From an uncultured Spirochaetaceae bacterium (GTDB taxonomy: Bacteria > Spirochaetota > Spirochaetia > DSM-16054 > Sediminispirochaetaceae), in NCBI GenBank assembly GCA_964346645.1, contig CAYFVU010000003.1, forward strand, positions 7,157 through 71,156: a stretch of 64,000 nt of DNA. Reading direction: 5' to 3'. The position numbers and the translations under genes are program-made. The notes under the pieces were generated by a model that worked only from the letters and a program-made list of their open reading frames with translations, was not told where the DNA came from and did not search any database. Of the stretch, positions 19,733 through 34,598 are shown one piece after another (within the stretch, counting starts at the first letter, position 1; each line of letters starts with the position of its first letter).

Positions 19733-19777
19733 CGTCTCGTCTCCTTTCTCGGACTAATTGCGTAATTCAGTTTCATT

Positions 19778-20650
19778 TTATGCCCCCCCACGTACGACTT
19801 TCTTCACGTAGACGAACGCGAAGATGAAGAGCCCGAAGACCAGCAGGTAGGCCAGGGCTGATGCGTATCCCATGTCGAAGAAGCGAAAACCAGTTTTATA
19901 GATGAAGAAGTTCACCGTCTCGGTAGCCCGTCCCGGGCCGCCGCCGGTCATCGTCACCACCGCGTCGAACTGCCGGACCGAGAATATCAGCTTCAGCAGC
20001 GTCACCATTACGATGATGGGTCTGAGCATCGGCAGGGTCACGTAGAAAAAGGTCTGAATCCTGTTGGCACCGTCCACCTGCGCCACATCGTAAACCTGTC
20101 TGGGCAGTGAGTCCAGCGCGCCTATGAAGACCAGTCCAATGTAGGGAGACCAGCCCCAGACCTCGGTGACCGCAAGCCAGAAGACCGCCCAGAAGGGATC
20201 TCCCAGCCACACAACCTCGCTGAACCAGGGAAGCATGGTGTCCAAGATCTTGTCTATGATGCCATAGTAGGGGTTGAGCATGAAACGCCAGGAAAAGCCC
20301 TTGAGGGCCGGTGCCATCGCATACGGCAGTATCAGACAGGCCTTGAGGATGGTACTCACGAGGCTCTTCTTCTGCAGGACGAGGGCGATCATCAACCCGA
20401 TGACTACCGAGAGGATCACGGAAACGATGGTGTAATTGACCGTCACCACGACGCTGTTGATGAAGTTCGGATCGTCGAAGGCCCTGAGGTAGTTTCTGAG
20501 ACCCACGAAGTTGCCGGGTGTGGGTCTCTTGTCCAGCTGCCACACACGGAAGCTCGTGACGAACGCCTGCAGAATGGGATAGAGCGTAGTTGCGGCAAGC
20601 ACCGTCACTCCAGGCGCGAGCAGTGACAGTAGTACGGTTCTCTGTTTCAT
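19778..20650 (-). CDS. sugar ABC transporter permease
   Basis: YDVAQVDGANRIQTFFYVTLP signature; multi-TM. Confidence 0.85.
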   Translation of the reverse strand: MKQRTVLLSLLAPGVTVLAATTLYPILQAFVTSFRVWQLDKRPTPGNFVGLRNYLRAFDDPNFINSVVVTVNYTIVSVILSVVIGLMIALVLQKKSLVSTILKACLILPYAMAPALKGFSWRFMLNPYYGIIDKILDTMLPWFSEVVWLGDPFWAVFWLAVTEVWGWSPYIGLVFIGALDSLPRQVYDVAQVDGANRIQTFFYVTLPMLRPIIVMVTLLKLIFSVRQFDAVVTMTGGGPGRATETVNFFIYKTGFRFFDMGYASALAYLLVFGLFIFAFVYVKKVVRGGA

Positions 20651-20737
20651 ACGGATTCCTCTTGCATCGAATTATGCTTAGCGGGGAAGGACAGGGCGGC
20701 GGAGATGAGCCCCGCCGCCCGTTGCTGCCGTTCCGGT

Positions 20738-22112
20738 CTAGTAACCGGCTCTCTCCATTATCTCGCTGACCTCATCCGCGGCCTGGTCGAGGACCTTCTC
20801 CACGTCTTCTCCGGTCGCTGCCTTGTTGACCGCGATGGCGAGGACGTCGGAAACCTCGGGCCACTCGGCGATCTGCGGCATGATCCTGGAAACCTCGAGG
20901 CTTTCAGCCGCGGTCTTGTGCATGCCGTTCCACGCCTCGTTGACCTCAGGATCGTTGAGAATGGCCTTCTGCACTGCCACGTTGGTGGTGGCGTTCGGAT
21001 CATCCTTGGTAGTCACGATCTTCTTCTCGAGATCGGGATTGGTTGCCCACTTTAAGAATTCCCACGCCGCATCCTTGTTGGCCGAATCCTTCATGATGGC
21101 CAGGGGCATGCAGATGGCGTAGGTGGCGCCGCCCTTGCCTTCCCACTCAGGGACGGGAGCAAAGAGCGCATTCTCCACCACCTCAGGCTGAGCATTCTCC
21201 TCGTTGACAAGGTTGGTGTACTGCCACCACCAGCTCAGGGACATGGCGGACTCGCCCTGCGCCATTGACTGGACAGCCTCGTACTCGTTGTAGGTCACGC
21301 CTCCCGGAGGAGCCACTTCCATTTCGGTGAGAAGACGCACGAACCGCTCGGTCGCCTCTACGCCCGCGGCGTTGTTGAAGACGGGCTCCCAGTTGTCGTT
21401 GAAGATCTGGCCGCCGTTGCTCCACAGGTAGGTGATCCACACGAAGAGGTTCTGCCCTGCGTGGCTTGCGTAGGGGTAACTGATACCGAACTGCTCGGTC
21501 TCCTCGGTGATGGTCTTGGCAACGGATTCCAACTCAGCCCAGGTGGAGGGGACCTCAAGGTCCAGCTCGTTCATGAGGTCTTCGCGGTAGAAGAGCAGCT
21601 GGGGATGGCCCCTCCACGGAAAGGCGTAGACCTGTCCGTCCTAGGTACATGCCTGCTGGAAGGCTGGGGGATACTTGTCCATGTCGATTCCAGTGGCATC
21701 GATCCTGTCCTCTATGGGGATGAGGAACTGCTGGATGGACGGGCCCCAGGAGTCCAGGTAGGTGACGATGTCGTAGTTACCGGTCATGCCGACACCCTCG
21801 GAGGTGATCTTCTCGAGGAGAGAGCCGAATGGGGTCATGTCGAACTTCAGCTCTATACCGGTCATCTCGGTGAACTCATCGGAGTACTGCTCCAGCGCCG
21901 TGTTCTTGGCCGCGTTGTTGAGCATCAGATTGAGGGTGGTGCCCTCATAGGGCTTGCCGGACTTCAACCCGTAGGGAAGCTCCTCGGCCATCTCTTCGTC
22001 TGCCTGAGTCTTTTTGGGTCTCTGATGCATCCTGCTGTCCACCTGCGAATACCAGCCCCGCGCTAAGCATCAGCACCAGCATCAACACAGCCAGTCTAAT
22101 GAATTTTCTCAT
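20738..22112 (-). pseudogene. sugar ABC substrate-binding protein gene disrupted by a frameshift and an in-frame TAG
   Basis: Signal peptide MRKFIRLAVLMLVLMLSAGLVFAGG starts at 22112 (AAGGAAG RBS). The reading frame must shift +1 near the CCCAAAAAG run (about 22020-22045) to continue into the SBP-like ORF 21641..22042. That ORF ends at TAG 21641-21643 and continues in the same frame (…QQACT*DGQVYAFPWRG…) into ORF 20738..21574. Confidence 0.7.
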
Positions 22113-22139
22113 CTTTACTTCCTTGAAAAAGTAGAACAT

Positions 22140-22153
22140 TGTATACGTATGCA
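22140..22153. promoter_or_regulatory. candidate LacI-type operator TGTATACGTATGCA
   Basis: 28 nt upstream of the disrupted binding-protein gene start. Same palindrome family. Confidence 0.5.
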
Positions 22154-22374
22154 GATTATTATAGCCTAGCCAGACGAGCTGTAAAGGGTTATTGTGAAAA
22201 TTACACAAAAAGGTTATGACTTTTGTTAGAGAGTACATCGATTAATATCTTTCCATCTGCTCTCCCCGGCCGAATCACCCGGTCAAACAACCGATTTTTC
22301 CTGTTTCATGCCGCGATCCGGCACAACGGGTTCTTCACGCAAGTCCGGCCAGATTCGATACCCAAATTATTTTC

Positions 22375-22403
22375 TTGACTCCTCGGACAGGAGCCCCTAT
22401 TAT
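22375..22403 (+). promoter_or_regulatory. sigma70-like promoter of the LacI-family gene (TTGACT - 17 nt - TATTAT)
   Basis: -35 at 22375-22380, -10 at 22398-22403. The operator palindrome starts at the last base of the -10. Confidence 0.5.
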
Positions 22404-22416
22404 GTTTACGTATACA
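22403..22416. promoter_or_regulatory. candidate LacI-type operator TGTTTACGTATACA (autoregulatory position)
   Basis: Dyad overlapping the -10/transcription-start region, 25 nt upstream of the LacI ATG. Confidence 0.55.
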
Positions 22417-22440
22417 AATTTTGATTCAGACTGGTGAAAC

Positions 22441-23457
22441 ATGGCAAAAAAAAATAACAGAAGAGTATCTTCCCGTGACGTTGCACGCCTTGCCGGAGTG
22501 AGTCAGGCAACCGTCTCCCGGGTGTTCACTCCCGGAAAACAGGTCTCCGAAGACAAGCGCAAGCGCGTGCTCGATGCGGCCTATAACCTCAACTACAAGC
22601 CGAGTGTAATCGCCCGGAGCCTCATCCAGAACTCAACAAAAATCATCGGTATCGTTATTCGCAAATTCGAAAACCTATTCTATGTCCGGGCCCTCGACCT
22701 CTTCTCCCGTAAACTGCAGAGTCTCGGTTACAGCGTCATGCTCTTCGATATCGCGGGAGCCCAGGCAGTCGAGGACACCCTTCCCATCGCCCTGCAGTAC
22801 CAGGTAGACGGCGTCATCATCACCTCTGCAACCCTCTCATCTCCCCTCGTGGAGGAGTGCAGCCGCTTCGACACCCCCGTAGTCCTCTTCAACCGGGTAA
22901 ACGAGGGCGAGAATGTCCACTCGGTCTGTACCGACAACTTGAATGCGGGACGCGAGATCGCCGAATACCTCATCGGCAGGGGCCACCGAAGAATATCCTA
23001 CGTCGCCGGCGAGCGGCACAGCTCGACCAACAGGAATAGGGAGCAGGGTTTCACAAATCGACTCTCCGAGGAAGGCATCGAGCTCACCTCGAAAGCCGAG
23101 GGGGACTTCGAATATCCCTCCGGTCTCGAGGCAGCCCGCGAACTGCTCTCAGCCAAAGAGAGACCCACGGCTGTCTTCTGCTCCAGCGACAACATGGCGA
23201 TGGCCCTGCGCGATGTCGCCGAGCTGGAGTTCCGACTCTCCGTCCCGGACGACCTCTCGATCGTAGGCTTCGACGACATTCCGATGGCTTCGTGGCCTCG
23301 CTATGACCTGACCACCTATCACCAATACACCGACAAGCTCGTGGACAACAGCATCAATGTGCTCTTGGAGGCCCTACAAGATCCGCACATGCCGATCGCG
23401 CATCAGTTCCTCCAGGGACGGCTCATCGAGCGGGGTACGGTAAAGGAGATCTCGTGA
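22441..23457 (+). CDS. LacI-family transcriptional regulator
   Basis: N-terminal HTH (SSRDVARLAGVSQATVSRVFT…YKPSVIARSL) and C-terminal sugar-binding domain (SIVGFDDIPMAS). Confidence 0.9.
   Translation: MAKKNNRRVSSRDVARLAGVSQATVSRVFTPGKQVSEDKRKRVLDAAYNLNYKPSVIARSLIQNSTKIIGIVIRKFENLFYVRALDLFSRKLQSLGYSVMLFDIAGAQAVEDTLPIALQYQVDGVIITSATLSSPLVEECSRFDTPVVLFNRVNEGENVHSVCTDNLNAGREIAEYLIGRGHRRISYVAGERHSSTNRNREQGFTNRLSEEGIELTSKAEGDFEYPSGLEAARELLSAKERPTAVFCSSDNMAMALRDVAELEFRLSVPDDLSIVGFDDIPMASWPRYDLTTYHQYTDKLVDNSINVLLEALQDPHMPIAHQFLQGRLIERGTVKEIS
22446..22454 (+). repeat. A9 homopolymer in codons 3-5 of the LacI-family gene
   Basis: ATG GCA AAA AAA AAT. One of only two A9 runs I can find in the window. 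Confidence 0.9.
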
Positions 23458-24341
23458 TATACGAACACTTTCTGCCGCAGGGGAAAGGCCTTTTTCATCC
23501 GGAATATCCGTATACCCGCATAGCCACGGGTTTTCGTTTTCTCGAAGGCCCTGCGTGGCACCCATACGAGCACCACCTCACCTTCAGCGACATCATAGGG
23601 AACGCACTCTACAGGTGGGCACCGCACACAGGCGTGGAGATGTTACGGCCGAACAGCTATCTCGCAAACGGCAACACCTACGACAGAGAGGGACGCATCC
23701 TGACCTGCGAGCACGGGACCAGCGTAATCAGCAGGACCGAGCACGATGGGACGAGGAACGTCCTCGCCGACTCCTACCAGGGAGTCGAGCTCAACAGCCC
23801 GAACGACATCATCGTGCGGAGGGACGGAACCATCCTCTTTACCGATCCCACCCCTGGGCGAAGCGCACGCATGGGCATCCCCAGGCCTCAACACCTCTCC
23901 TTTACCGGGGTATTCAGCCTCCACCCGGAAACCGGCGAACTCGGCCTCGTCGCCGACGACTTCTCAAAACCCAACGGACTCTGCATGAGCCTCGACGAAC
24001 GCCACCTCTTCGTCAACGACACCGACAGACAGCATATTCGCCGCTTCACTGCGGAGGATGACGGCAGATTCTCCGGCGGCGAGATATGGGCAGAGCTGAT
24101 GACCGATGGCCCCGGTGTAGCGGACGGCATGAAAATAAGCCTCGATGGTTTTCTCTTTTGCAGCGCACCGCGCGGTATCCAGATATTCGACCAAGAGGCT
24201 AATCTCGTCGGCAGGCTCTATACTCCCGAAGTCGCGGCGAATTTTACCTGGGGCGGCCCCGACATGAAGGCCCTCTACCTCACCGCAACTACCAGCCTCT
24301 ACTCGCTGCGGAGCTCCTGCGAAGGCCCCAAGCTCTTTTGA
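23454..24341 (+). CDS. SMP-30/gluconolactonase/LRE-family protein (sugar lactonase-like)
   Basis: Six-bladed-propeller lactonase motifs (NSPNDIIVRRDGTILFTDP, PNGLCMSLDERHLFVNDT). The GTG start overlaps the LacI stop. Confidence 0.8.
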   Translation: MIYEHFLPQGKGLFHPEYPYTRIATGFRFLEGPAWHPYEHHLTFSDIIGNALYRWAPHTGVEMLRPNSYLANGNTYDREGRILTCEHGTSVISRTEHDGTRNVLADSYQGVELNSPNDIIVRRDGTILFTDPTPGRSARMGIPRPQHLSFTGVFSLHPETGELGLVADDFSKPNGLCMSLDERHLFVNDTDRQHIRRFTAEDDGRFSGGEIWAELMTDGPGVADGMKISLDGFLFCSAPRGIQIFDQEANLVGRLYTPEVAANFTWGGPDMKALYLTATTSLYSLRSSCEGPKLF

Positions 24342-24444
24342 TTCGCTGCGCACAGGCAAACTGAAACTCTAGGGCTTTGAGCTCTTTTTCGAACGCCGAC
24401 ACACACCTCATGCCGACACCGGGAGAACCCGGTTGCACGGGGGC

Positions 24445-25797
24445 TCACCTGCGAGTTTGAAAGTAGGCACTGTAAACGAGCTCGAGCGTATCGTCCTCCC
24501 CGACATTTCCCGGAAAGATGACATAGGGCATACCTTCGCAGCGATGCCCCTCGGGGAGCTCGACTGCCGGGACCCCCGGGTGGACCTGACCGAGGACCCT
24601 CACGAACTCAGGGCCGAGCCCGGAGACCAGGATGTCATGCGAGGTAATGCCGCCCTTCGAAACGAGGAAGCCGAGCTCCTCCAGCTTCGCACGTACGACA
24701 TCTACAAGAAACTGCGAGAGAATCTCGCCTGTCTCCAAACGCTCCTGCGCGCTTGCGAAGGTCAGCTCTTCTCTCGGAGTGTAGAGCACCGGAGTCTGCC
24801 CTTCTCGATGAACAGCCGCTATGGAGCCGAGTATCCTCTCCTGCTCTGTGCTTCGTTCATGTGTGCCGGAGAGCACCTTGCCGATGTCGATTTCGAGCCC
24901 CTCGGTCGTCGGATTCTCGAGTAGCGCATAGAGCTGACGCGTGGTCTTGGGCACATGAGATCCGACTACGATCAATCCGCTTTTTCCCCTCAGCTTCACC
25001 TCCTCCTTCTCGAGCAGGCCTCTGTCCGGATTACGGTTAAAGGATTTCACGAAGGATGAGGAGGTGTGGAAGAGAAAGTGCTTCCCCTCCTCTACGGCTC
25101 GTCTGGCCGCAGCGGTAAACCTGTCGAGATCCTCGTATGAGCTGCAGTTGACCACCACGTAGCGCTCGGACTCGAGTCCCTCGAGAAACTCCTCGAGTGC
25201 GCTGCCGTCGTTGTCCCTGAGGAGCTCGAGGGGGATGCCTGCGACATCCTCTGCGTGCACCCTCCCATTGGTCTTCTCTTCTATGTAGTTCGGTAAATAG
25301 GAATCTCGATAGGAAAACACCGAGTCACGGGCAAACTCCGAGTCGGAGGTCTTCTTCTCCCTTCCCTCCTCGAGGAGATAATGGGTGTCGCCGTAGGTGT
25401 ATCTTCCCGCCTCGAAAAATGCGGGAATGACGAAGACCGCATCGTAGCGGCCCTCCCGGCCGCAGGCTTCCAGAGTCTCACGAATCGCATCTATCTCGAG
25501 GGGAAAGTGGCCCCTCAGCGTGGAATCGGATCTCCCGACGAAGATCGGCCGGATCTCTCCACCCTTCCTCTCATTCAGCGCCGAGCAGACCGCTTCTACC
25601 GCTCCCCGTATCTGCTCCCTCGCCTTCTCCGGTTCCAGGGCCCTCGTGTTGGTGAGGATGTAGAAGAAGTCCGTCTCGTCGTCTAAGGCGGTACGGATGG
25701 TGGACTTCTTCCAATCGGTTACGGCGAGACAGCCGTGCACCGTCTGTATACCCGTGGGATCGTCGTCGAGTATGATAGTTTTGAATTTTGTATGCAT
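24445..25797 (-). CDS. four-carbon acid sugar kinase family protein (DUF1537)
   Basis: N-terminus MHTKFKTIILDDDPTGIQTV and C-terminal nucleotide-binding half (…LVSKGGITSHD…VIFPGNVG) are typical of DUF1537 kinases. The longer ORF start at 25836 adds a hydrophobic, non-homologous extension. Confidence 0.8.
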   Translation of the reverse strand: MHTKFKTIILDDDPTGIQTVHGCLAVTDWKKSTIRTALDDETDFFYILTNTRALEPEKAREQIRGAVEAVCSALNERKGGEIRPIFVGRSDSTLRGHFPLEIDAIRETLEACGREGRYDAVFVIPAFFEAGRYTYGDTHYLLEEGREKKTSDSEFARDSVFSYRDSYLPNYIEEKTNGRVHAEDVAGIPLELLRDNDGSALEEFLEGLESERYVVVNCSSYEDLDRFTAAARRAVEEGKHFLFHTSSSFVKSFNRNPDRGLLEKEEVKLRGKSGLIVVGSHVPKTTRQLYALLENPTTEGLEIDIGKVLSGTHERSTEQERILGSIAAVHREGQTPVLYTPREELTFASAQERLETGEILSQFLVDVVRAKLEELGFLVSKGGITSHDILVSGLGPEFVRVLGQVHPGVPAVELPEGHRCEGMPYVIFPGNVGEDDTLELVYSAYFQTRR

Positions 25798-25812
25798 ATT
25801 GGCGATTATACA
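25798..25812 (-). promoter_or_regulatory. possible -10 element (TGTATAAT) 7 nt upstream of the kinase ATG; leaderless-mRNA candidate
   Basis: Minus-strand sequence is TGTATAATCGCCAATATG. No Shine-Dalgarno lies between the -10 and the ATG. Confidence 0.3.
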
Positions 25813-25940
25813 AAAAAGGCGGAAGATGAAAAACACCTACCGCCCTTAGAGACCACGTCTTCTCGAGTCCTCTTCCCGCTCAAAACCGGCGAGAAAGCGC
25901 AAAGGACTTCAAGACCCTGCGAAAGAGCCATGCATCACTA

Positions 25941-26720
25941 TCAGCGATACTCCTTCGTAAAGCTGTCGACCAGCCCTCTTCCGACCTTGCCGAGAGTGAC
26001 TGTGTCCGACATCAGCAGCAGCAGGTTGTAGCCCCGATCGTACTTGGCCTTTGCATCGTCCCAGTCCTTTGCCACGGTGGAGAGGAACTTGTCGGATGCA
26101 TTTACCTTCTCTTCGATCGTCTTGATCGCCTCCTGCACCGCCGGCTGCGAGGGATCCGAGAGGTAGCCGAGGTTGGTTGCGAGGTCCGCAGGGCCGATGA
26201 AGATGCCGTCCACCTCAGGCACCTCGAGGATCTTGTCGAGGTTCTCTACCGCCTCGCCGGTCTCCACGGCAATCATCAGCACGATCTCTTCGTCCGCGCT
26301 CTTGAAATAGTCTATCGACTTGTTGCCGAAGTGAGCGGCCCGCGGGCTGCCGGCTACGCCGCGTATACCCTTCTGCGGGTACTTGACCGCCTTCACCGCG
26401 GCTTCGGCCTCCTCCTTCGTGTTGACGTAGGGAACGAGGAGCCCGTAGGTGCCTGCATCGAGGATTCGCTTGACCTGCACGAAGTCGTTCCACGGCGCAC
26501 GCACGAAAGGCACGGCGGGATAGCCCTGCATCGACTGTATCTGGCTGATGAGGGTCTGAATGTCCCCCGGCGCGTGCTCCATGTCGATCATCAGCACATC
26601 GAATCCCGCCTCGGCGAGAACCTGACTCGTGATGTTGCTCGCCGCCTGTGCCCAAGCGCCGGCCACCTTCTTCTTCTCTTTCAGCAGCTTCTTCGCTGCA
26701 TTGATATGTGTAATCTCCAC
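25941..26720 (-). CDS. HpcH/HpaI-family aldolase (2-keto-3-deoxy-acid aldolase type)
   Basis: DVLMIDMEHAPGD…, VPFVRAPWND…, IFIGPADLATNLG motifs of the HpaI/GarL/RhmA family. GTG start with AAGGAGAG RBS. Confidence 0.8.
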   Translation of the reverse strand: MEITHINAAKKLLKEKKKVAGAWAQAASNITSQVLAEAGFDVLMIDMEHAPGDIQTLISQIQSMQGYPAVPFVRAPWNDFVQVKRILDAGTYGLLVPYVNTKEEAEAAVKAVKYPQKGIRGVAGSPRAAHFGNKSIDYFKSADEEIVLMIAVETGEAVENLDKILEVPEVDGIFIGPADLATNLGYLSDPSQPAVQEAIKTIEEKVNASDKFLSTVAKDWDDAKAKYDRGYNLLLLMSDTVTLGKVGRGLVDSFTKEYR

Positions 26721-26762
26721 GTCTCTCTCCTTTTTAGCGAAAGTTCTTATTCTCGAGAGTTC

Positions 26763-28184
26763 TTACTGGAACAGCACCGGCTCTATGTCGAGCATATTGC
26801 AGACCTCGATCAGCTCGTCTACGTAGGCGCCGGCCACACCGGAGATGTGGTTGGAGCCGTACTCGTCGACGAAGTCGTCGATGTCGAAGCCGACTTTGGC
26901 AAAGAGGGTCGGCAGCTGGTGGGGTCCCCTCGCCTTCACGAAGTCCTCGATGAGGTCGTCGGAGGGCGCAACCGCCTCGCTGGGGATGATCGCCATGTAG
27001 TACTTTCCGTCTTTCCGGTAGAGTCTGGCGAGCTGCATCGGTCCGGGCGCGGCGGTAAAGTAGGTAATGCCTCCCACTCCCGGGCGCACCGACTGCTTGA
27101 TGGTGATCGCCTTCATGTTCTCATCGGGCTCGCCGCTGCGGGCCCCGTACCAGGTGCACATGGCGCCACAGTTCACGCAGTACATGGTGCTGCGCTCATC
27201 GTCTATGTGGCTCACGTCGGCAAAGTAGGTCGGCTTGCCGTCGGATATTATCTTCAGGATCTGCTGGGTGAGTGCGGCGTCGGCGTCGGCCTCACAGGCC
27301 ATCACGATGCCGTCCTTCTTTCCCTCCTCTGCGTCGTAGTCGCTCGGCAGGAGCGCCGCGGTCATGCACTGCGGCGCATAGTGGTGGGAGAGCTCGGTCA
27401 TGCACTTTATGGCGGTGAACTCGAGATTGTAATCCTTGATGATGTCCTTGGTGGCGAGGTAGCAGGCAATCTGGAAGTCGAAACCGTCCTTGGTCAGACG
27501 GTCCTCGTTGTATTGCACCTCCTTCACGCTGCCCTCGATCCACTCTCGCATCTTCTTGACCCGTGCGGGATCCATCTCCTCGGCCCGCCGCACGATCTCG
27601 ACCTGATCGATGTGCTCGGCGTCGACGCCGAACTTCTTGCGCCACTGCATCGGGTCGAACTGGGCGGTGTCTATGCCGATCGATCGGCCGCCGAAATAAC
27701 CGAAGACGCTTCCCTGCAGCTGCGACTTCACCTGCGCCGCGCGGATGTAGGGCATCATCTTGGCCCCGAGATCGGGACTGTCGTAGTCTATGCGCACCCG
27801 CTTGTGGGGATAACCGATCTGGGCGAGGGCTCCCGAAGTGCCGAAGAAGCCGACATTGCCGTGGGTGGCAGGGTCGCGGTTACCGAGCACGATGGTCGGA
27901 AGATTCATCCGCTGTACGCCGTAGACCGCCAGGTTCGGCGAGGTCCAGCATGGCGTGTGGGCAATGAAGATCTGGGCTCCCTGACGCTTGAGTGTGTCCA
28001 CCGCTTCGGTAATCTGTGCGCGTGTCCTGGAGACTTCCTCGTTGTAGAGGACCTCCACATCGAGCCCCTGCAGTCCCTCTATCGCCTTCCTGTGCCTCGG
28101 CTCGGTGAGGTTCTTGAAGACCTTCTCCCACTCGTTCTTACGATAATCGCCGAAGGTGATTATCGCTACTTTCGCTTTGTCCAT
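26763..28184 (-). CDS. L-fucose/L-arabinose isomerase-family protein
   Basis: 473 aa with FucI/AraA-like core (…FGYFGGRSIGIDTAQFDP…, …MACEADADAALTQ…). GGGAGA RBS. Confidence 0.7.
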   Translation of the reverse strand: MDKAKVAIITFGDYRKNEWEKVFKNLTEPRHRKAIEGLQGLDVEVLYNEEVSRTRAQITEAVDTLKRQGAQIFIAHTPCWTSPNLAVYGVQRMNLPTIVLGNRDPATHGNVGFFGTSGALAQIGYPHKRVRIDYDSPDLGAKMMPYIRAAQVKSQLQGSVFGYFGGRSIGIDTAQFDPMQWRKKFGVDAEHIDQVEIVRRAEEMDPARVKKMREWIEGSVKEVQYNEDRLTKDGFDFQIACYLATKDIIKDYNLEFTAIKCMTELSHHYAPQCMTAALLPSDYDAEEGKKDGIVMACEADADAALTQQILKIISDGKPTYFADVSHIDDERSTMYCVNCGAMCTWYGARSGEPDENMKAITIKQSVRPGVGGITYFTAAPGPMQLARLYRKDGKYYMAIIPSEAVAPSDDLIEDFVKARGPHQLPTLFAKVGFDIDDFVDEYGSNHISGVAGAYVDELIEVCNMLDIEPVLFQ

Positions 28185-28193
28185 AGTATCTCC

Positions 28194-29030
28194 CTATTTC
28201 AGCTCTTTCTTCGCCCGCTGAAGAAGCTCGTAGTCGTCGTCGGTTACGGTTTTGTATCCCGGAGTGGGATAGGCCTGAAATCCGCGTCCGCCGTCGTTGT
28301 AGATCGACTGGCCGAATATGAAGTTGGAATCCTCGGAGGCGAGGAACACCGCGAGGCGTCCACACTCTTCGACGGTTCCGATCCGCCCGATGGGGGTCCT
28401 GCTGAGAATGGTGTTCATCAGCTGATCGTCCGATCCGACCCGCCGCATGAGCTCCGTCTCGATGGGTCCGGGGGCGAGGGCGTTGACCTTGATGTTGTAC
28501 TGCGCGAGCGCCACCGCCTGCACCTTGGTCATCTGCTGAATGGCTCCCTTGCTTGTGGTGTAGACCATCTGGGAGTCGAGTGCGAGGTGAGCGTTGACCG
28601 AGGACATGTTTACGATCGCACCGCCGTCGCCCTGCTTGATCATCTGCCGGGCGGCGAACTGATCGCCGAAGAACATGCCCCGGAGATTCACGTCCATGAT
28701 CTTGTCGTACTGCTCCGGTGTAATGTCGAGGAAATGAGTCTTGTTCGAATCGTTAATACCCGCATTCGCTACGTAGATGTCGAGGCGTCCGTAGAACTCG
28801 ACGGTCTTGTCCACGATCATCTGCAGATCTTCGACATTCGCCACATCGCACTTGATGTAGCGCACATCGCCGCCGGCCTCCTTCAGCTGCTTCTCTGCAG
28901 CCTCGCCGGTTTCCGCGTTTCTTCCCGTGATAACCACCTTCGCGCCTTCGCGTATGTACTCCTTGGCGATGCCGTAGCCGATGCCCTTGGTACCGCCGGT
29001 TATGATCGCCACCTTGTCCTTCAATTTCAT
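28194..29030 (-). CDS. SDR-family oxidoreductase
   Basis: TGGTKGIG cofactor motif, NAG, and YTTSK catalytic YxxxK. Confidence 0.85.
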   Translation of the reverse strand: MKLKDKVAIITGGTKGIGYGIAKEYIREGAKVVITGRNAETGEAAEKQLKEAGGDVRYIKCDVANVEDLQMIVDKTVEFYGRLDIYVANAGINDSNKTHFLDITPEQYDKIMDVNLRGMFFGDQFAARQMIKQGDGGAIVNMSSVNAHLALDSQMVYTTSKGAIQQMTKVQAVALAQYNIKVNALAPGPIETELMRRVGSDDQLMNTILSRTPIGRIGTVEECGRLAVFLASEDSNFIFGQSIYNDGGRGFQAYPTPGYKTVTDDDYELLQRAKKELK

Positions 29031-29127
29031 GCCTTTACCTCTTCCTTTATCCTATCTTCGAAAATGAAAAACCGGGAGGGGCGGATTACGAGACCCGCTC
29101 CTCCCGTGAGTGTGTATGGGGGAAACG

Positions 29128-30042
29128 CTATTTCTTCAGCCGGCCCTTCTCATCGTGGTGCTCGTCGTACTGTATGTGAGGCGCTCCGGCGTAGCCCTGG
29201 GGATTGCGGAACCCGAGGGGATTCACGCCGCAGGGGTACTTGCTCTTGAGCTCCTCGATCAGCCCGGAGTAGTGCTTGACTACGCCCTCTACGAGCTGCT
29301 TTCCCTTCTTCTCGCTCGCTTTCGTCGGGTCACCGATAACACCGTTGTCCAGATCGTCCTTCTCGGGCAGCGCGAAGGTGCCTTCGAAGTGGTAGAACAT
29401 GCCGGGTTCGGCGGCCTGTCCCGGGGCGATCTTCCACTTGCCGTCTATCAGACCGTGACCGCCGCCCTGCTCTGCGAGATCCTGGTTCATCCACTGCGGA
29501 TAGAGGTAGAGTCCCACGGAAGACTCGGCCTCGTCGGCGTGCCACATGTAGTCGTCGAGCACATTCTTGTCGTCGCGCAGGAAGTCGTACCAGGTTGAGG
29601 AGAGGGTAAAGAAGCCCTCGATTCCGAGCTTGTGCACCGCAGTGATAGTCGACATGACCTGCCCGTGCGCAGAGATGATAATGAACTTGTTGAAGCCGGC
29701 CACCGCCGCGCCACGCACGATGTCGACGAGCAGTCCTATGTGGGTCTCGTAGGAGAGGGGGATGGTGCCGACCATTCCCCAGTGGTGGTGAGGGTGAGAG
29801 CCGTACATGGGACAGGGGAGGACCATGGCGCCGGTCTTCTCTCCGACTTTCTCCGCGATACCGACCGCGTTGAAGGTGTCCATTCCCGTCGGGGCGTGTG
29901 CGCCGTGCTGCTCTATTGCGCCTATGGGGAGAATTGCGACGTCACACACCTCTTTTGCGTACTTTGCCACCACGTGGGCGCTGTTCTCGTGATACCACAC
30001 CGAATCTCTCTTTTCCAATTTGAACTCTTTCTGTTCCTTCAT
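29128..30042 (-). CDS. creatininase-family (creatinine amidohydrolase-like) metal hydrolase
   Basis: VAILPIGAIEQHGAHAPTGMDT motif typical of the creatininase/MftE/ArfB family. Confidence 0.75.
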   Translation of the reverse strand: MKEQKEFKLEKRDSVWYHENSAHVVAKYAKEVCDVAILPIGAIEQHGAHAPTGMDTFNAVGIAEKVGEKTGAMVLPCPMYGSHPHHHWGMVGTIPLSYETHIGLLVDIVRGAAVAGFNKFIIISAHGQVMSTITAVHKLGIEGFFTLSSTWYDFLRDDKNVLDDYMWHADEAESSVGLYLYPQWMNQDLAEQGGGHGLIDGKWKIAPGQAAEPGMFYHFEGTFALPEKDDLDNGVIGDPTKASEKKGKQLVEGVVKHYSGLIEELKSKYPCGVNPLGFRNPQGYAGAPHIQYDEHHDEKGRLKK

Positions 30043-30068
30043 TCTTCTTCCTCTCTTTATTCTAGTTA

Positions 30069-31127
30069 TTAAAGCCGTGAATCAAGCTCGAGCTCTTCCG
30101 CCAGCTTGTTTAGATCCTGCACCAGTTCTCCGGGAACGGGCAGACCCTCTTCTCTGCGCTGTTGTTCGGTTTTCCATTCCATTTCCCCGGGGACGAGCTG
30201 CTCGTCCTCCGGATCCACCATCGGTGTATCCTTGACTTTACGGCGCAGCGTGTCCATCCGCTCGACGAACTCCTTCTCCTCCATAAAGACCTTAGGATCG
30301 AATACGGAGAAGAGGTGGCAGGTGAGGCTCGGGTCTTCCTTCGCCTTGTACATGCTCTTGATCTCGTTGTGGAAGGCGCCGCCGCTGAGGACGCCTGTCA
30401 CGATGTCCACGAACATCGAGAGGCCGAAGCCCTTGTGCATGCCTACCGGCAAAAGAAATCCCTTGAAGCCCTCGTCGGGGTCGTCGGTTTCCAGTCCGTC
30501 CTTCGTCACCGCCCAGTTGGTGGGAATCTTCTCCCCCTTCTTGCTCGCGAGAAGGAGTTTGCCGCCCGCGACCGCACTGAGGGAGATGTCGAGGGAGAAA
30601 GGGTAGTCCCCGGAGAGGGGCGCCGCCATCGCGATGGGATTGTTCCCCGTCGACGGCTTCTTGTTACCCTTCATGCCGATATTCGGCCCGACGTTGGTGG
30701 TAACCAGGCTCACGAGTCCCTGATCGGCGGCCATCCGCGAATAGAGCGATGCCGCTCCGAAGTGGTTGCTGTTCTTTACCACCACTGCGGAGACGCCGTA
30801 CTGCCTCGCCTTCTCTATGGCCCGTTCGATGCCGGCCCTTCCGACCACGAAGCCGTGTCCCGCATCGCCGTCCATCAGCTCGAGAGCCTTATCCTCGCCC
30901 TTCAGGCTGCGGATATCGGGACTGCTCTTGATGGCGCCGTTGCGTATGCGCTCGATGTATATGGGGGTACGGAGAATTCCGTGGGAATCTACTCCCCACA
31001 AATTCGTCTGCACCGCACAACGGGCGCAGAAGGAGGAATCTTCCCCGCTGAGTCCCGCTGCCGAATACATCTCTGTGAGGAACTGTTCCGCTTCCTCTAC
31101 GGATATCTTTTTCTCGTTTCCTTCCAT
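30069..31127 (-). CDS. Ldh_2-family (malate/L-lactate dehydrogenase type 2) oxidoreductase
   Basis: …TNLWGVDSHGILRTPIYIERIRNG…, NHFGAAS…, PIAMAAP motifs. ATG 31127 has GGAG 6 nt upstream; the ORF track start at 31139 is TTG. Confidence 0.8.
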   Translation of the reverse strand: MEGNEKKISVEEAEQFLTEMYSAAGLSGEDSSFCARCAVQTNLWGVDSHGILRTPIYIERIRNGAIKSSPDIRSLKGEDKALELMDGDAGHGFVVGRAGIERAIEKARQYGVSAVVVKNSNHFGAASLYSRMAADQGLVSLVTTNVGPNIGMKGNKKPSTGNNPIAMAAPLSGDYPFSLDISLSAVAGGKLLLASKKGEKIPTNWAVTKDGLETDDPDEGFKGFLLPVGMHKGFGLSMFVDIVTGVLSGGAFHNEIKSMYKAKEDPSLTCHLFSVFDPKVFMEEKEFVERMDTLRRKVKDTPMVDPEDEQLVPGEMEWKTEQQRREEGLPVPGELVQDLNKLAEELELDSRL

Positions 31128-31143
31128 ATAAAACTCCAATGTA

Positions 31144-31157
31144 TGTATACGTATTCA
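31144..31157. promoter_or_regulatory. candidate LacI-type operator TGTATACGTATTCA
   Basis: 17 nt upstream of the Ldh_2 ATG, at the head of the six-gene operon. Confidence 0.5.
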
Positions 31158-31358
31158 TTTTACATGCAGGACTTTGGATCTGTCAAGAAAAACCGCTGCC
31201 CATTACGGGGCTTTTTCGCCCGATTTTCACCCCTTTCTTGCTGCATCTCCGAAAAAAAGGGCGAGTTCAGGGCAAAAGGTGCCGCTTCCATCCATCCGCC
31301 TGGGATCTCGCGTCCATGCGTGGACGGGACTCCGCGGGGTCTTCCTGCATGGGCACAG

Positions 31359-31372
31359 TGAATACGTAATCA
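31359..31372. promoter_or_regulatory. candidate LacI-type operator TGAATACGTAATCA
   Basis: Second site about 215 nt upstream of site 31144 in the same spacer. Confidence 0.4.
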
Positions 31373-31399
31373 GCTACTCCCGTACCCTCCCCGCCCACG

Positions 31400-31418
31400 A
31401 ACAAACCGCAATGTGCGG
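31400..31418 (-). terminator. weak intrinsic terminator after the URO-D paralogue
   Basis: Minus strand CCGCA-CAT-TGCGG followed by TTTGTT, starting 3 nt after the stop codon. Confidence 0.4.
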
Positions 31419-31420
31419 CC

Positions 31421-32557
31421 TCAGTCACACTGCAGAGGATAGCTGCCGAACTCGTGGGCGGCCTCGAACATCACCTTCACGTTCTCCGGCGGAATGTCCC
31501 AGTTTATCTGATGGCAAGTGGAGATGATGTAGCCGCCGCCTCGACCGAGATCGCAGATGCGCCGCTTTACCTCCTGTCGAACATCTTCCTCGCTCGCATT
31601 GACCATGACGTTCTGCACGTCGATCGCGCTGTGAAAGCAAATTTTGTCGCCGTACTGATCATTCAGAGCCTTCGTGTCGCTCAGCTCCTCCACCGATGTC
31701 TGTACAGGATTGAGAATGTCGACCCCCATCTCGATCATACCGTCTATGATCGGTAGCACCGAGCCGTCGGTGTGAAACATCACCTTCACGTGGGGTGCAA
31801 GGCTCTTGATGTGGGATATGAGCTCCTGCTCGTAGGGCTTGAGAAACTCCGCCCACATGTCAGGCGACATTAGCAGCGAGTTCTGGCTGCCGAAATCGTC
31901 AGTGAGATAGACGATCTGCACATATTCGCCGACTTCACGCATGTAGAGACTGTAGAGCTCCTTGTAGACCTCCGTCACCTTCTTCATGAGTGCATGCACC
32001 AGATCCGGATTCAGCACGAAGTCCATAAAGAGCTGGTCCATACCGCGCAGCTCCCGGGAGGACTGAAAGACCCCGCCCTTTATGCCGTCGGCGCCGATTA
32101 CGTAGTCGCTGTTCTCGTGCCAGTGCTTCGCCTGCTCCCTCAGTCCAGCGAACATCTCCTCGTCGTCGGTGCGGGGCCATGAGTATGTATCCAGATCCTC
32201 GACACTCGCCTCGCGCAGGGGCGAATCCACCTCAGAGTAGGAGTCTCCCATGTTCCGGAAGAGCACGCCGAAGAGATTACGGTAGTGCTCCTCGTCTACC
32301 TCCTCTATCTGCGTCCACTTGGGGATGAGCCATCGAAAATCCACACCGAGAGCCTCAAGCACATCCTCATCCGAAACCACGCACTGATTCATTCTATCGA
32401 GAATGGTAAAGTCCTGCACCTCAGGTAAGCCGAGCACCTTTCTCACCGGATTGTACTCCTTCTTATGGAACGAACCGACCTGCTTGCCTTGGTCAACCAG
32501 CACACGACCGACCTCCCGGTGGGCCATCGTTGCATCGAAAATCTCCCGTCTATTCAT
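31421..32557 (-). CDS. uroporphyrinogen decarboxylase (URO-D) family protein, function unknown (second paralogue)
   Basis: URO-D-like barrel (…VMFHTDGSVLPIIDGMIEMGVDILNPVQ…GGGYIISTCHQI). AAGGAGAA RBS. Confidence 0.75.
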   Translation of the reverse strand: MNRREIFDATMAHREVGRVLVDQGKQVGSFHKKEYNPVRKVLGLPEVQDFTILDRMNQCVVSDEDVLEALGVDFRWLIPKWTQIEEVDEEHYRNLFGVLFRNMGDSYSEVDSPLREASVEDLDTYSWPRTDDEEMFAGLREQAKHWHENSDYVIGADGIKGGVFQSSRELRGMDQLFMDFVLNPDLVHALMKKVTEVYKELYSLYMREVGEYVQIVYLTDDFGSQNSLLMSPDMWAEFLKPYEQELISHIKSLAPHVKVMFHTDGSVLPIIDGMIEMGVDILNPVQTSVEELSDTKALNDQYGDKICFHSAIDVQNVMVNASEEDVRQEVKRRICDLGRGGGYIISTCHQINWDIPPENVKVMFEAAHEFGSYPLQCD

Positions 32558-32568
32558 AGTCTTCTCCT

Positions 32569-32582
32569 TGAATACGTATACA
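32569..32582. promoter_or_regulatory. candidate LacI-type operator TGAATACGTATACA
   Basis: 12 nt upstream of the URO-D paralogue ATG, abutting its RBS. Confidence 0.5.
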
Positions 32583-32643
32583 TAACACCTCTATTGTACG
32601 TTTCCAGCTCGGTATTGTAAAGATACTTTTCGGACTGATAGCA

Positions 32644-34452
32644 CTATTCGAGGTGTTCGGCAATGACCTGCAGGAAGGCATCCCCGTATTTGGCTAACTT
32701 CTTCCGCCCTACTCCGGAGAGATCGAGGAGCTCTGAGCGGCTTCGCGGAAGCTCCTCGGCCATCGCCTTTAGCACCGCATCGGAGAAGACCATGTAGGGG
32801 GCGATTTTCCGCTCTCGCGACAACTCCAGCCTCTTCTTCCGCAGCCCGTCGAACAACCGCCCGTCCTTCCTGCCGGCTGTATCGGCTTTTTGTTCCCGCA
32901 CGGACTGCTGCTCCTGTCTCCGCTGTAAAATGAAGGATTCCCTTCCGAACAGCACGTTCCTGCCGGTTTCGGTGAGCTCGAGTACCGGCAGATTACCACC
33001 GCTCTGCCTCAGTGCCCCGCGAGAGAGGAGGTCGGTAACCAGCTCGTTCCAGTGCCGTTTCGGCTTGTCCCTGCCGACTCCGTAGGTGGGCAGCCCGTCG
33101 TGCCCCCACTGGCGGATTCTCTCGGTCTTCGCTCCCTTCACGATATCGACAATCTGGCCGGCACCGAAGCGCTCTTCGGTTCTGGCGACGGCCGACAGGA
33201 GTTTCTGCGCGTCCACGGTCAGGTCCTCGCTTCTACCCGCATCGGTACAGACGTCGCAGCTGCCGCAGTTTCCCGGGTGCGCCTCGTCGAAGTGACCGAG
33301 CAGGACCTTCCTCCGGCATTCATCCGCCTCTGCATAGCTCACCATGGTCTCGAGGTTCCTCCTGCCCCGCTCCGCCTCTGCCTCGTCCTCTATGCGATCG
33401 ATGAAGTAGCGGATCTTGCCGATATCCCTCGGCGAGTAGAGCAGCAGGCAGTGGGAGAGCAGTCCGTCGCGACCCGCCCGCCCAGTCTCCTGGTAGTATG
33501 CCTCGAGGCTCTTCGGCAGATCGCCGTGGATCACGAAGCGGACGTTGGATTTGTCGATTCCCATGCCGAAGGCGATCGTCGCCACCACCACATCGGCCTC
33601 GTCGCGTACGAAGAGCTCCTGATTCTTCCGACGCAGCTCGTCCGGGAGCCCGGCGTGGTAGGGAATGGCTTTGACCCCAGCGCTCCGGAGGTACTCCGAG
33701 GTCGCCTCCACATCTTTACGCCTGGTGCGGTAGACGATGCCCGCCTTACCGGGCCGATCGAGGACGAAGCCGAGTATCTGTTCGAGGGGCTGCTCTTTGC
33801 GCCGCACCCGGTAGAATATCTCCGGGCGGTCGAAGCTCGCGCGCAGCACGAAGGGCCTCTTCATCCGGAGCTTGGCTACGATATCTGCCTGCACCTTCGT
33901 GGTGGCAGTGGCGGTAAATGCGGCTATGCGGGCCTGCGGAAAACTCTTGCGGATGGTCGAAAGCGAGAGATAGTCCGGACGGAAATCGTGGCCCCACTCG
34001 CTTATGCAGTGGGCCTCGTCGATGACGAAGAGGGAGGGGTAGAGCTCCTGCAGCTGTTCACGAAAGCGGGGCAGCGAAAAGCGTTCGGGACTGATGTAGA
34101 GGAGCTTTACCTTGCCGGAGAAGAGGCGGCGATAGATATCGCGTGCCTGCTCCTCCCCCAGGGAGCTGTTGATGAACTCCGCCGGAATGCCGAGCTCCTG
34201 CGCCGCGCTCACCTGATCGTGCATGAGGGCGATGAGAGGACTCACCACCACGGTGATGCCATCGAGCATGAGGGCGGAGAGCTGATAGCAGAGCGATTTG
34301 CCCCCGCCTGTGGGCATGGAGACGAAGACGTCCCTGTTGTCGAGGATCGCCTCCACCACCTCCTTCTGGTTTGCTTTGAAGGAGTCGAATCCGAATGTTT
34401 CTTTCAGCGCGTCCGTGATTTTCCGGTCTGAAGCCACGGCACACTCTCTCAC
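32644..34452 (-). CDS. recQ: ATP-dependent DNA helicase RecQ
   Basis: Helicase motifs (MPTGGGKSLCYQ, DEAHCISEWGHDFRPDY), Zn-finger Cys cluster (CRRK…CGSCDVC), RQC and C-terminal HRDC (…YMVFSDAVLKAMAE…). Confidence 0.9.
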   Translation of the reverse strand: MRECAVASDRKITDALKETFGFDSFKANQKEVVEAILDNRDVFVSMPTGGGKSLCYQLSALMLDGITVVVSPLIALMHDQVSAAQELGIPAEFINSSLGEEQARDIYRRLFSGKVKLLYISPERFSLPRFREQLQELYPSLFVIDEAHCISEWGHDFRPDYLSLSTIRKSFPQARIAAFTATATTKVQADIVAKLRMKRPFVLRASFDRPEIFYRVRRKEQPLEQILGFVLDRPGKAGIVYRTRRKDVEATSEYLRSAGVKAIPYHAGLPDELRRKNQELFVRDEADVVVATIAFGMGIDKSNVRFVIHGDLPKSLEAYYQETGRAGRDGLLSHCLLLYSPRDIGKIRYFIDRIEDEAEAERGRRNLETMVSYAEADECRRKVLLGHFDEAHPGNCGSCDVCTDAGRSEDLTVDAQKLLSAVARTEERFGAGQIVDIVKGAKTERIRQWGHDGLPTYGVGRDKPKRHWNELVTDLLSRGALRQSGGNLPVLELTETGRNVLFGRESFILQRRQEQQSVREQKADTAGRKDGRLFDGLRKKRLELSRERKIAPYMVFSDAVLKAMAEELPRSRSELLDLSGVGRKKLAKYGDAFLQVIAEHLE

Positions 34453-34598
34453 GAGCTGCCGTGCCTGATCAACTCCCGACTCCGACTCTCACCTCGGAAC
34501 CGACACACGGCAGAGCAGCATCGCAGCTCCTCCGGTGCCAAGATTTCCGACAATTTTACTGCCTGTATCTGCAGACCGAACCGTTGTATAGTGTGGAC

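Follow-up and report, generated by a model that had tools for sequence, protein, structure and literature searches.

A recurrent gene cluster with an IolN-like hydrolase and a pyruvate aldolase at its centre probably encodes an undescribed acid catabolic pathway

Introduction

Several described catabolic pathways use enzyme families that also occur together in a gene cluster of an uncultured Spirochaetaceae bacterium. The cluster lies in a 64,000-nt stretch of DNA (GenBank assembly GCA_964346645.1, contig CAYFVU010000003.1, positions 7,157 to 71,156 of the forward strand), which we analyzed as a whole and hereafter refer to as the window. It encodes an Ldh_2-family dehydrogenase, a creatininase-fold hydrolase, a short-chain dehydrogenase/reductase (SDR), a FucI-like isomerase, an HpcH/HpaI-family aldolase, and a DUF1537-family kinase, flanked by genes for a LacI-family repressor, a lactonase, and a URO-D-family protein. 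An earlier note on this DNA had proposed a non-canonical acid-sugar cluster built around the kinase. Here, we compare the cluster to the closest described systems and to its relatives in other genomes, and we find that its center is the IolN-like hydrolase together with the aldolase.

In 2013, Rodionova et al. reportedly found that Thermotoga maritima IolN converts the cyclic diketone 3-dehydro-scyllo-inosose by hydrolysis into 5-keto-L-gluconate. The cluster resembles the IolG-IolM-IolN-IolO inositol pathway of this organism in its creatininase-fold hydrolase, whose best match is IolN, in the IolM-like zinc-dependent alcohol dehydrogenase (Zn-ADH) encoded directly before that hydrolase in the second of the two cluster versions described below, and in the proposed chemistry, which would likewise be an oxygen-free oxidation to a diketone followed by hydrolytic C-C cleavage to a keto acid. 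It differs in that its hydrolase scores below the IolN cut-off (150 vs 245 bits), in that IolG and the IolO epimerase are missing, and in that it adds an Ldh_2 dehydrogenase, a lactonase, a FucI-like isomerase, and a pyruvate aldolase. The importer also differs, being either of the tripartite ATP-independent periplasmic (TRAP) type, which implies an acid, or a CUT1 ATP-binding cassette (ABC) importer, and the cluster is predicted to end at pyruvate, whereas the Thermotoga route enters the uronate pathway. For the T. maritima operon TM0411-TM0416, a further source lists the same inositol-pathway intermediates (PMC5931981).

The Bacillus-type inositol lower pathway (IolD, IolB, IolC, IolJ) offers a similar succession of a ring-opening hydrolase, an isomerase, a kinase acting on a keto-acid sugar (optional in the cluster), and an aldolase, and an IolB-family gene is present in the second version of the cluster. 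However, the cluster hydrolase is creatininase-fold rather than thiamine diphosphate-dependent, the aldolase is of the HpcH pyruvate type rather than the dihydroxyacetone phosphate (DHAP) type, the kinase is DUF1537 rather than PfkB, and there is no IolE dehydratase. HpaI and GarL, to which the cluster aldolase is about equally near, act in the homoprotocatechuate and glucarate/galactarate lower pathways, where they cleave dicarboxylic 2-keto-3-deoxy acids to pyruvate and an aldehyde-acid. The cluster aldolase scores below both cut-offs, and the cluster is without GudD/GarD, GarR, GarK, or aromatic ring-cleavage genes.

Pathways that employ DUF1537 kinases (PMC13753588) include L-threonate/D-erythronate catabolism through OtnI-OtnK-OtnC, D-threonate/D-erythronate catabolism through DtnK/DenK-PdxA2, and D-apionate catabolism through OiaK. 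They share with the cluster a two-domain kinase, TRAP importers, 2-hydroxyacid oxidation, and a likely kinase target in which a CH2OH group stands next to a carbonyl. In contrast to these systems, the cluster kinase belongs to a deep, separate clade and is optional, and OtnI, OtnC, PdxA2, and RuBisCO-like partners are not in the cluster. The strictly anaerobic phloroglucinol pathway of Clostridium scatologenes also opens a cyclic 1,3-diketone with a metal-dependent retro-Claisen hydrolase from an amidohydrolase-type family and uses an SDR (PMC10470551). Its DPGC hydrolase belongs to the 'cyclase' family, its downstream steps involve a BKACE lyase and CoA chemistry, and its substrate has no carboxylate (PMC10470551). 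We rejected this pathway as the identity of the cluster on the difference between the 'cyclase' and creatininase families.

We found no paper describing the enzyme set of the cluster. Because the equivalog tests reported below also failed, we conclude that the cluster belongs to no characterized pathway. By analogy, it appears to work partly like the IolM/IolN steps of Thermotoga and to end like the GarL and HpaI lower pathways.

Results

A conserved core recurs in two versions

With the isomerase as the anchor, the Ldh_2-creatininase-SDR-FucI-HpcH core was found in the same order, at 54-92% identity, in relatives of the same family and class. In these relatives the LacI and lactonase genes often lie beside the core, and the URO-D gene is sometimes within the operon. 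The core is also present in Spirochaetia, Deltaproteobacteria, Clostridia (Eubacterium aggregans and human-gut Enterocloster), and 80 metagenome loci.

We counted 28 distinct neighborhoods, each with at least 6 kb on both sides of the creatininase-family gene. Seventeen of these contain a first version with Ldh_2 and FucI-like genes, of which 15 also have the SDR and 14 the SMP-30 lactonase. The second version (11/28) has a D-2-hydroxyacid dehydrogenase, a Zn-ADH, a KduI/IolB-family isomerase, and a metallo-β-lactamase (MBL)-fold hydrolase. Between the two versions, Ldh_2 is exchanged for the D-2-hydroxyacid dehydrogenase, the SDR for the Zn-ADH, the FucI-like isomerase for the KduI/IolB-family isomerase, and the lactonase for the MBL-fold protein, while the creatininase-fold hydrolase is constant and the HpcH-family aldolase is retained in most neighborhoods (23/28 for both versions together, 9/11 for the second). 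That the pathway requires exactly six functions is best supported by this one-for-one exchange of four enzymes for unrelated families of like general function. We are confident that the cluster is a conserved six-function acid-catabolic module with an optional kinase. The second-version Zn-ADH, directly before the hydrolase gene, has IolM (scyllo-inosose 3-dehydrogenase) as its best match (218 bits), the isomerase has IolB (105 bits), and the MBL-fold protein weakly matches ascorbate-6-P lactonase (55 bits).

A TRAP importer is encoded in 18/28 neighborhoods. URO-D and the DUF1537 kinase each occur in 7/28, SnoaL-like and M19 dipeptidase-like proteins each in 5/28 (the latter as pairs beside some clusters), and TAL_FSA, a transaldolase/FSA-like family, in 3/28; the kinase and TAL_FSA are found together in none (0/28). 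Asp/Glu-racemase-family, malic-enzyme-like, and LarA-type (nickel-pincer racemase) genes adjoin a related cluster at one locus (L113, 14439-17863).

Phylum-wide, only one of 400 other genomes sampled had a match to the hydrolase, and that match was distant, indicating that the cluster is patchy within the phylum. It probably moves horizontally. A relative of the same class (G022) has a transaldolase-like gene 99% identical to one in a metagenome-assembled genome with proteins labeled as those of a Spirochaetia bacterium, so that the window genome, too, most likely belongs to the Spirochaetia.

Gene content and regulation of the cluster in the window

The open reading frame (ORF) listing and Pfam and NCBIfam profile searches bear out every gene and family named in the earlier note. 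The core operon is on the minus strand and begins with the Ldh_2-family 2-hydroxyacid dehydrogenase (30069-31124, Pfam 365 bits), whose likely start is the ATG at 31124 with a GGAG upstream. It continues with the creatininase-fold metal hydrolase (29128-30042, Pfam 164 bits), IolN-like and the signature enzyme of the cluster, a classical SDR (28194-29030, Pfam adh_short), a short (473 aa) FucI-like aldose-ketose isomerase (26763-28184, Pfam Fucose_iso_C/N1/N2), and a class II pyruvate aldolase of the HpcH/HpaI family (25941-26720, Pfam 145 bits). The DUF1537-family kinase, an accessory member, follows on the same strand (24445-25797, Pfam SBD_N and NBD_C). Upstream of Ldh_2 is the URO-D-family gene, a frequent accessory member (31421-32557, minus strand, Pfam 101 bits over the C-terminal half). 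The LacI-family repressor, which is co-conserved with the cluster (22441-23457, Pfam LacI and Peripla_BP), and the SMP-30/gluconolactonase-family lactonase (23454-24341, Pfam SGL 126 bits) are on the plus strand; the start of the lactonase gene overlaps the lacI stop by 4 nt, suggesting that the two are translationally coupled. No dehydratase family was detected among the cluster genes of the window, as the earlier note had observed, or in the 28 neighborhoods, which span several phyla. The adjacent CUT1 ABC importer (18866-22112) comprises two permease genes (18866-19732 and 19778-20650, minus strand, Pfam BPD_transp_1), with orthologs at 61-63% identity within the cluster at loci L197 and L200, and a binding-protein gene (20738-22112, minus strand).

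Four promoters share an operator, the palindrome TGTATACGTATACA, which occurs with one mismatch each at 22140, 22403, 31144, and 32569. Allowing up to three mismatches, the window has 8 matches compared to 0.54 expected by chance. The copy at the promoter of the ABC operon, TGTATACGTATGCA (22140-22153), overlaps a promoter-like site (22185-22158), and the copy at the promoter of lacI and the lactonase gene (22403-22416) abuts another (22375-22403). At the promoter of the Ldh_2-to-aldolase operon, the operator (31144-31157) overlaps the -10 box of TTGACA-18-TAAAAT, and the copy at the URO-D promoter (32569-32582) accompanies a promoter-like site at 32621-32593. On these matches, we assign the adjacent ABC importer to the same predicted regulon as the cluster. 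As the same gene set recurs in many unrelated genomes and four promoters share an operator, the genes are no chance grouping. The view of the locus as a non-canonical, co-conserved, dehydratase-free catabolic cluster stands.

Two weaker operator copies with three mismatches (6579-6592 and 6781-6794) lie upstream of a second CUT1 ABC operon (genes 1717-6454, minus strand), whose last gene encodes a SnoaL-domain protein of 436 aa. Genes with this domain are found beside the cluster in several other genomes too, and the operon at 1717-6454 may belong to the regulon of the cluster. Beyond the URO-D gene, the next gene encodes RecQ (32644-34452), followed by FeoB, both unrelated to the cluster. An Rfam scan of the window from 17000 to 35000 gave no match.

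The hydrolase is related to IolN

The best NCBIfam match of the hydrolase is IolN (3-dehydro-scyllo-inosose hydrolase, NF041098) at 150 bits, E 6e-44, against a cut-off of 245. With the creatininase model TIGR04448 it scores 75 bits, half its IolN score and far from the cut-off of 235, so it is no creatininase proper. Metal and catalytic residues are kept at the positions of creatininase Glu34, His36, Asp45, His120, and His178, and the position of Glu122 is occupied by Gln. The hydrolase is also the most conserved member of the cluster, at 61-92% identity across phyla. Its relation to IolN is one of family rather than orthology. The window cluster has no Gfo/Idh/MocA (IolG) gene, and the IolM-like Zn-ADH is present only in the second version. 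The suggestion that a creatininase-type enzyme has no place in any acid-sugar route does not hold, given that the best match is IolN, whose route yields an acid sugar.

Other enzymes match families but not characterized subfamilies

The aldolase scores 232 bits with HpaI (cut-off 369), 231 with GarL (393), and 158 with RhmA (441), placing it in the Pfam family but in none of these equivalogs; HpaI and GarL are also its nearest solved structures, at about equal distance. The isomerase reaches 46 bits with FucI (cut-off 775) and 74 bits with SftI (cut-off 700), and only the three FucI Pfam domains are matched. Ldh_2 is much closer to the sulfolactate/malate dehydrogenase branch (268 bits, with a sulfolactate dehydrogenase cut-off of 500) than to YiaK (143 bits). 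The best NCBIfam subfamily of the SDR is glucose 1-dehydrogenase, at 238 bits and above the cut-off, and the same protein scores 197 bits with L-rhamnose 1-dehydrogenase. Gluconolactonases 3DR2 and 3E5Z are the nearest solved structures of the lactonase. The TAL_FSA genes of related clusters have weak matches to generic transaldolase models only. A sulfoquinovose pathway was considered from the top matches to SftI and sulfolactate dehydrogenase and the TAL_FSA genes of some clusters, and was rejected because the scores are far below the cut-offs and no dehydratase is present.

The URO-D protein scores 41.5 bits with HemE (cut-off 303) and 61 bits with MtaA/CmuA (cut-off 235), and its gene is inside the cluster at loci L113, L114, L131, L186, L191, and L197. 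It has H-T-D(-G) where a paralog linked to a glycoside hydrolase of family GH38 has H-T-C(-G), and it is without the His-x-Cys zinc motif of MtaA. That paralog (10177-11343, minus strand) heads an operon with a GH38 alpha-mannosidase gene (6892-10131, minus strand), and its H-T-C-G resembles the zinc motif; it is conceivable that it is a component of a corrinoid-dependent sugar O-demethylase. The genome encodes at least three small (~228 aa) corrinoid-binding proteins. At locus L199 (13473-15284), a 603-aa fusion of URO-D with two B12-binding domains directly follows the FucI-like gene of a related cluster, the usual position of plain URO-D. In light of this fusion and the corrinoid proteins, the cluster URO-D may be a corrinoid methyltransferase, but its missing His-x-Cys motif speaks against such a role.

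The DUF1537 kinase is an optional accessory

The kinase contains both family domains at full length, SBD_N at 171 bits (residues 21-265) and NBD_C at 127 bits (residues 288-451), numbered from the GTG start of the ORF. NCBIfam scores are 64 bits with DtnK (cut-off 450) and 39.5 bits with OtnK (cut-off 350), and no relative with a solved structure was found at E≤1e-3. Its place is in a deep DUF1537 clade that numbers several thousand sequences and has the motif DDDPTGxQT, and a canonical DUF1537 paralog in the same genome is extremely distant from it in the tree.

Among the best 80 genomic loci of kinase relatives (41-48% identity), none has another cluster gene within 10 kb. These loci belong to cyanobacteria, Thiobacillus, Gallionellaceae, Chromatiaceae, and one Spirochaetaceae, and we accordingly dropped the kinase as an anchor in favor of the isomerase and the hydrolase. 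In the closest orthologous loci without the kinase, the lactonase and aldolase genes are 118-270 nt apart. A direct search found no kinase ortholog in four close relatives that carry the cluster and are 92-97% complete, and a fifth has a 46% homolog in an unrelated context. The kinase is present with a window-like layout in two Logan contigs (60% identity). In E. aggregans, TRAP, URO-D, creatininase, Ldh_2, SDR, FucI, HpcH, lactonase, and kinase genes make up a single operon, in which 3 nt separate the kinase from the gene before it, and in human-gut Enterocloster lavalensis/bolteae the kinase is within the operon after a 49-nt gap. In the kinase tree, the window group forms a clade apart from that of the Eubacterium/Enterocloster group, and the two share 37% identity. 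OtnI, OtnC, PdxA2, and RuBisCO-like partners are missing from the window cluster and from L121, L158, and similar loci. Only in E. aggregans (L123, 19140-20912) is a RuBisCO-like protein, together with a SorC-type regulator, encoded ~3 kb beyond the kinase on the opposite strand.

In the window, the kinase is also set apart by its flanking sequence. We take the ATG at 25797 as its start because it matches the family N-terminus MxxxxxIVVLDDDPTG, and with this start the gap to the aldolase gene is indeed the 143 nt given in the earlier note. Within this gap, on the minus strand, lie a terminator-like hairpin 3′ of the aldolase gene (25812-25847; 13 bp and a U-tract, dG -17.8 kcal/mol, z -5.8, 0/200 shuffles as stable) and a promoter-like site TTTTCA-16-TATAAT (25805-25832), whose -35 region the hairpin overlaps. 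The TATAAT is 7 nt before the ATG, implying a leaderless mRNA. No copy of the shared operator precedes the kinase in the window scan at up to three mismatches, and the spacer has no conservation between the window and loci L121/L122. Taken together, the hairpin, the separate promoter-like site, and the missing operator suggest that the kinase in this genome is transcribed on its own, probably as a leaderless mRNA, shielded from the operon upstream of it and outside the LacI regulon. From its distribution, we regard the kinase as a lineage-specific optional accessory; the description of the cluster as built around it is not supported, given its occurrence in only 7/28 neighborhoods, the 80 nearest kinase loci without cluster genes, and its position behind a terminator-like hairpin with no operator.

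The surroundings of other kinase relatives are varied. The nearest non-cluster relatives (50-52%) adjoin split transketolase genes, and at two loci (L207, 296-8612; L209, 7001-11188) the kinase forms a conserved unit with a split transketolase and an Asp/Glu-racemase-family protein, followed in L207 by an apiosidase-family gene. This unit may be a variant transketolase route for a branched or small ketose. One relative is beside Zn-ADH and HIBADH-type dehydrogenase genes. In Thiobacillus and other Proteobacteria (L009, 7612-12824; L053, 7678-11272), a kinase homolog directly follows a phosphoketolase/transketolase-like gene encoding 750-790 aa, and at L009 a GlcD-like FAD oxidase gene comes after the kinase homolog. 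The clade is widespread in cyanobacteria, where neighbors are not conserved. A glycerate kinase, an idea prompted by the relatives in autotrophs and the GlcD-like neighbor of one of them, was rejected as the contexts are too mixed. The canonical paralog of the same genome (L210, G000 contig C73, 2420-13042) is beside a Rieske/FAD reductase fusion, a DASS-family transporter, and a succinyl-CoA-ligase-like pair, with aldehyde dehydrogenase, RpiB, and the C-terminal half of a transketolase further along; by its gene content, this appears to be another acid-catabolic cluster.

TRAP binding proteins point to a small hydroxylated carboxylate

The first-version TRAP binding proteins belong to a single orthogroup (51-69% identity). 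The nearest solved relatives of the TRAP binding proteins were crystallized with 2-keto-3-deoxygluconate (KDG), pantoate, or erythronate (PMC11668362); the KDG-bound relative is closest to the TRAP protein at L115, which is outside the binding-protein orthogroup of the cluster. The ligand data support a small hydroxylated carboxylate as the probable substrate, nothing more specific.

Discussion

A proposed ring-opening pathway

The reading that we favor, and consider probable, is that the window holds a LacI-controlled regulon for the uptake and anaerobic breakdown of a hydroxylated carboxylic acid by a widespread, so far undescribed pathway. The six functions would be an SDR alcohol dehydrogenase, an IolN-like, metal-dependent hydrolase of C-C bonds adjacent to a ketone, a short FucI-like aldose-ketose isomerase, a lactonase, the Ldh_2 dehydrogenase, and an HpcH pyruvate aldolase. 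As a tentative order of steps, the substrate would first be converted to a 2-hydroxy-1,3-diketone, which the hydrolase would open into a product with a terminal carboxylate and, at the opposite end, a hydroxymethyl ketone. The isomerase would turn the hydroxymethyl ketone into an alpha-hydroxy aldehyde, and a dehydrogenase and the lactonase would carry this aldehyde through lactol and lactone to a 2-hydroxy acid. Ldh_2 would then oxidize the 2-hydroxy acid to a 2-oxo acid, and the aldolase would release pyruvate and a second small acid. Since there is no dehydratase, the substrate itself must, on this order, bring the 3-deoxy CH2 that the aldolase needs; a hydroaromatic ring acid (quinate, for example) or a deoxy-inosose would do so. 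Any particular substrate that we might name is nonetheless highly doubtful. URO-D, SnoaL-like proteins, and M19 pairs would be accessory modules.

Where it is present, the kinase most likely phosphorylates a hydroxymethyl-ketone-type side product or intermediate, because a CH2OH adjoining a ketone is both the motif of known DUF1537 substrates (3-oxo-tetronate) and the group that IolN-type cleavage creates. That the kinase and TAL_FSA exclude each other suggests, as a hypothesis, that they are alternative outlets for the same fragment, and transaldolase/FSA-like genes may fill the role of the kinase in other lineages.

A number of observations weigh against this pathway. The order of steps is deduced from family chemistry, and if the SDR or Zn-ADH were an IolM-like ring dehydrogenase, the aldehyde-to-acid step would be left with no enzyme and the lactonase with no clear role. 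The two dehydrogenases encoded in the cluster would not supply all the oxidations of a quinate-type route, and we saw no shikimate/quinate dehydrogenase or dehydroquinase genes near any cluster. Between the two versions, the TRAP binding proteins share only 26-44% identity, and the substrates of the versions may therefore differ. The window itself has no TRAP importer, and its CUT1 ABC importer is of a type that usually carries neutral sugars. Furthermore, the binding-protein gene of that importer is broken by an in-frame TAG (21641-21643, seen in the translation). The ortholog at L197 aligns through the stop in one frame (53% identity), the N-terminal signal region was not recovered in the aligned frame, and both permease genes are intact; the gene is either a pseudogene or the product of an assembly error. 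Finally, the backbone of the kinase tree is without resolution, so that one old association followed by many losses looks no different from repeated recruitment.

Alternative explanations

The best-surviving alternative, though we think it rather unlikely, is a linear route in which a uronate, a keto-deoxy-uronate, or ascorbate-derived 2,3-diketogulonate undergoes isomerization and oxidation to a linear 2-hydroxy-1,3-diketone. The IolN-like enzyme would split this into a small acid and a dihydroxyacetone-type fragment, to be rescued by the kinase or a transaldolase/FSA-like enzyme. The combination of TRAP, Ldh_2, and kinase recalls the E. coli yiaK-S 2,3-diketogulonate operon, but Ldh_2 is nearer the sulfolactate/malate dehydrogenase branch than YiaK (268 vs 143 bits). 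KduI/IolB-family isomerases, which handle uronate-type aldehydes, stand in for the FucI-like gene in the second version, where the MBL protein also has its weak ascorbate-6-P lactonase match (55 bits); uronate users, however, normally carry UxaC-type genes. The exclusion of kinase and TAL_FSA fits a shared dihydroxyacetone-like product, and the closest solved relative of the TRAP protein at L115 was crystallized with KDG, although that protein is outside the cluster orthogroup. On such a route the aldolase would be redundant or need a separate substrate, and no oxalate- or tartronate-handling genes were seen.

A pathway that does center on the DUF1537 kinase appears improbable. It would degrade a four-carbon or similar acid sugar with each step taken by a different family, Ldh_2 serving as the 2-dehydrogenase, the FucI-like protein as OtnI, the kinase as OtnK, and URO-D as OtnC, and would end in DHAP. 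Such a scheme fits the logic of the Ltn2D/Den2D, OtnI, OtnK, OtnC route (PMC13753588), the TRAP proteins of the cluster are most like solved ones crystallized with erythronate or pantoate, and the kinase is within the operon in E. aggregans and Enterocloster. Yet the kinase is absent from 21/28 neighborhoods and has no ortholog found in four relatives that bear the cluster, and the Enterocloster version has the kinase without URO-D. The scheme also gives no role to the two most constant enzymes, the IolN-like hydrolase and the HpcH aldolase, and the kinase, which in the window is outside the shared operator, comes nowhere near the cut-offs for OtnK and DtnK.

We consider it highly unlikely that the cluster is an ordinary non-phosphorylative aldose route of the L-rhamnose/L-fucose type, with a sugar 1-dehydrogenase, a lactonase, a dehydratase encoded elsewhere, a 2-keto-3-deoxy-acid aldolase, and the other genes as passengers. 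The SDR, SMP-30 lactonase, and HpcH aldolase would supply three of its steps, a FucI-like gene is present, and the SDR is above the glucose 1-dehydrogenase cut-off with a substantial score for L-rhamnose 1-dehydrogenase (197 bits). Against this, none of the 28 neighborhoods has a dehydratase, the supposed passengers (hydrolase, Ldh_2, and isomerase) are the most tightly conserved genes and belong to the same operon, and TRAP importers speak for an acid rather than a neutral sugar.

Least likely of all, with only a slim chance in our estimate, is an amide or lactam substrate, in which case the creatininase-fold enzyme would act as a genuine amidohydrolase on an amino sugar acid, removing its N-acyl group or opening its lactam before sugar-type catabolism: most characterized members of the fold are C-N hydrolases (creatininase, ArfB-type formamide hydrolase, MftE) and M19 dipeptidase pairs adjoin some clusters, but the best match is IolN at twice the creatininase score, no cluster has a deaminase, aminotransferase, or ammonia-lyase, and the second version has IolM-like and IolB-like partners.

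Implications

The pathway that we favor would concern sediment and digester Spirochaetia, Deltaproteobacteria, acetogenic Eubacterium, and common human-gut Enterocloster, all of which have the cluster, and no described pathway fits it. A widespread cluster without a matching pathway suggests that an abundant natural organic acid is consumed by unknown chemistry. Because two one-for-one enzyme sets assign the six functions, the pathway is testable in cultured hosts.

In its most specific form, which we put forward as speculative and think rather unlikely, the cluster would carry out an oxygen-independent hydrolytic ring opening of a hydroaromatic plant acid (quinate or a relative) by a creatininase-fold C-C hydrolase, yielding pyruvate and a C4 acid with no dehydratase. 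Two non-orthologous enzyme sets would do so in anaerobes including human-gut Enterocloster, and a DUF1537 clade of thousands of members, also found in cyanobacteria and chemolithoautotrophs, would phosphorylate hydroxymethyl-ketones instead of four-carbon acid sugars.

If the proposed pathway is true, it would add a second reaction type for the creatininase fold beyond IolN, and it would help to assign the short FucI-like isomerases, the URO-D proteins in sugar operons, and the very large DUF1537 clade. For this clade, the annotation 'four-carbon acid sugar kinase' should not be passed on.

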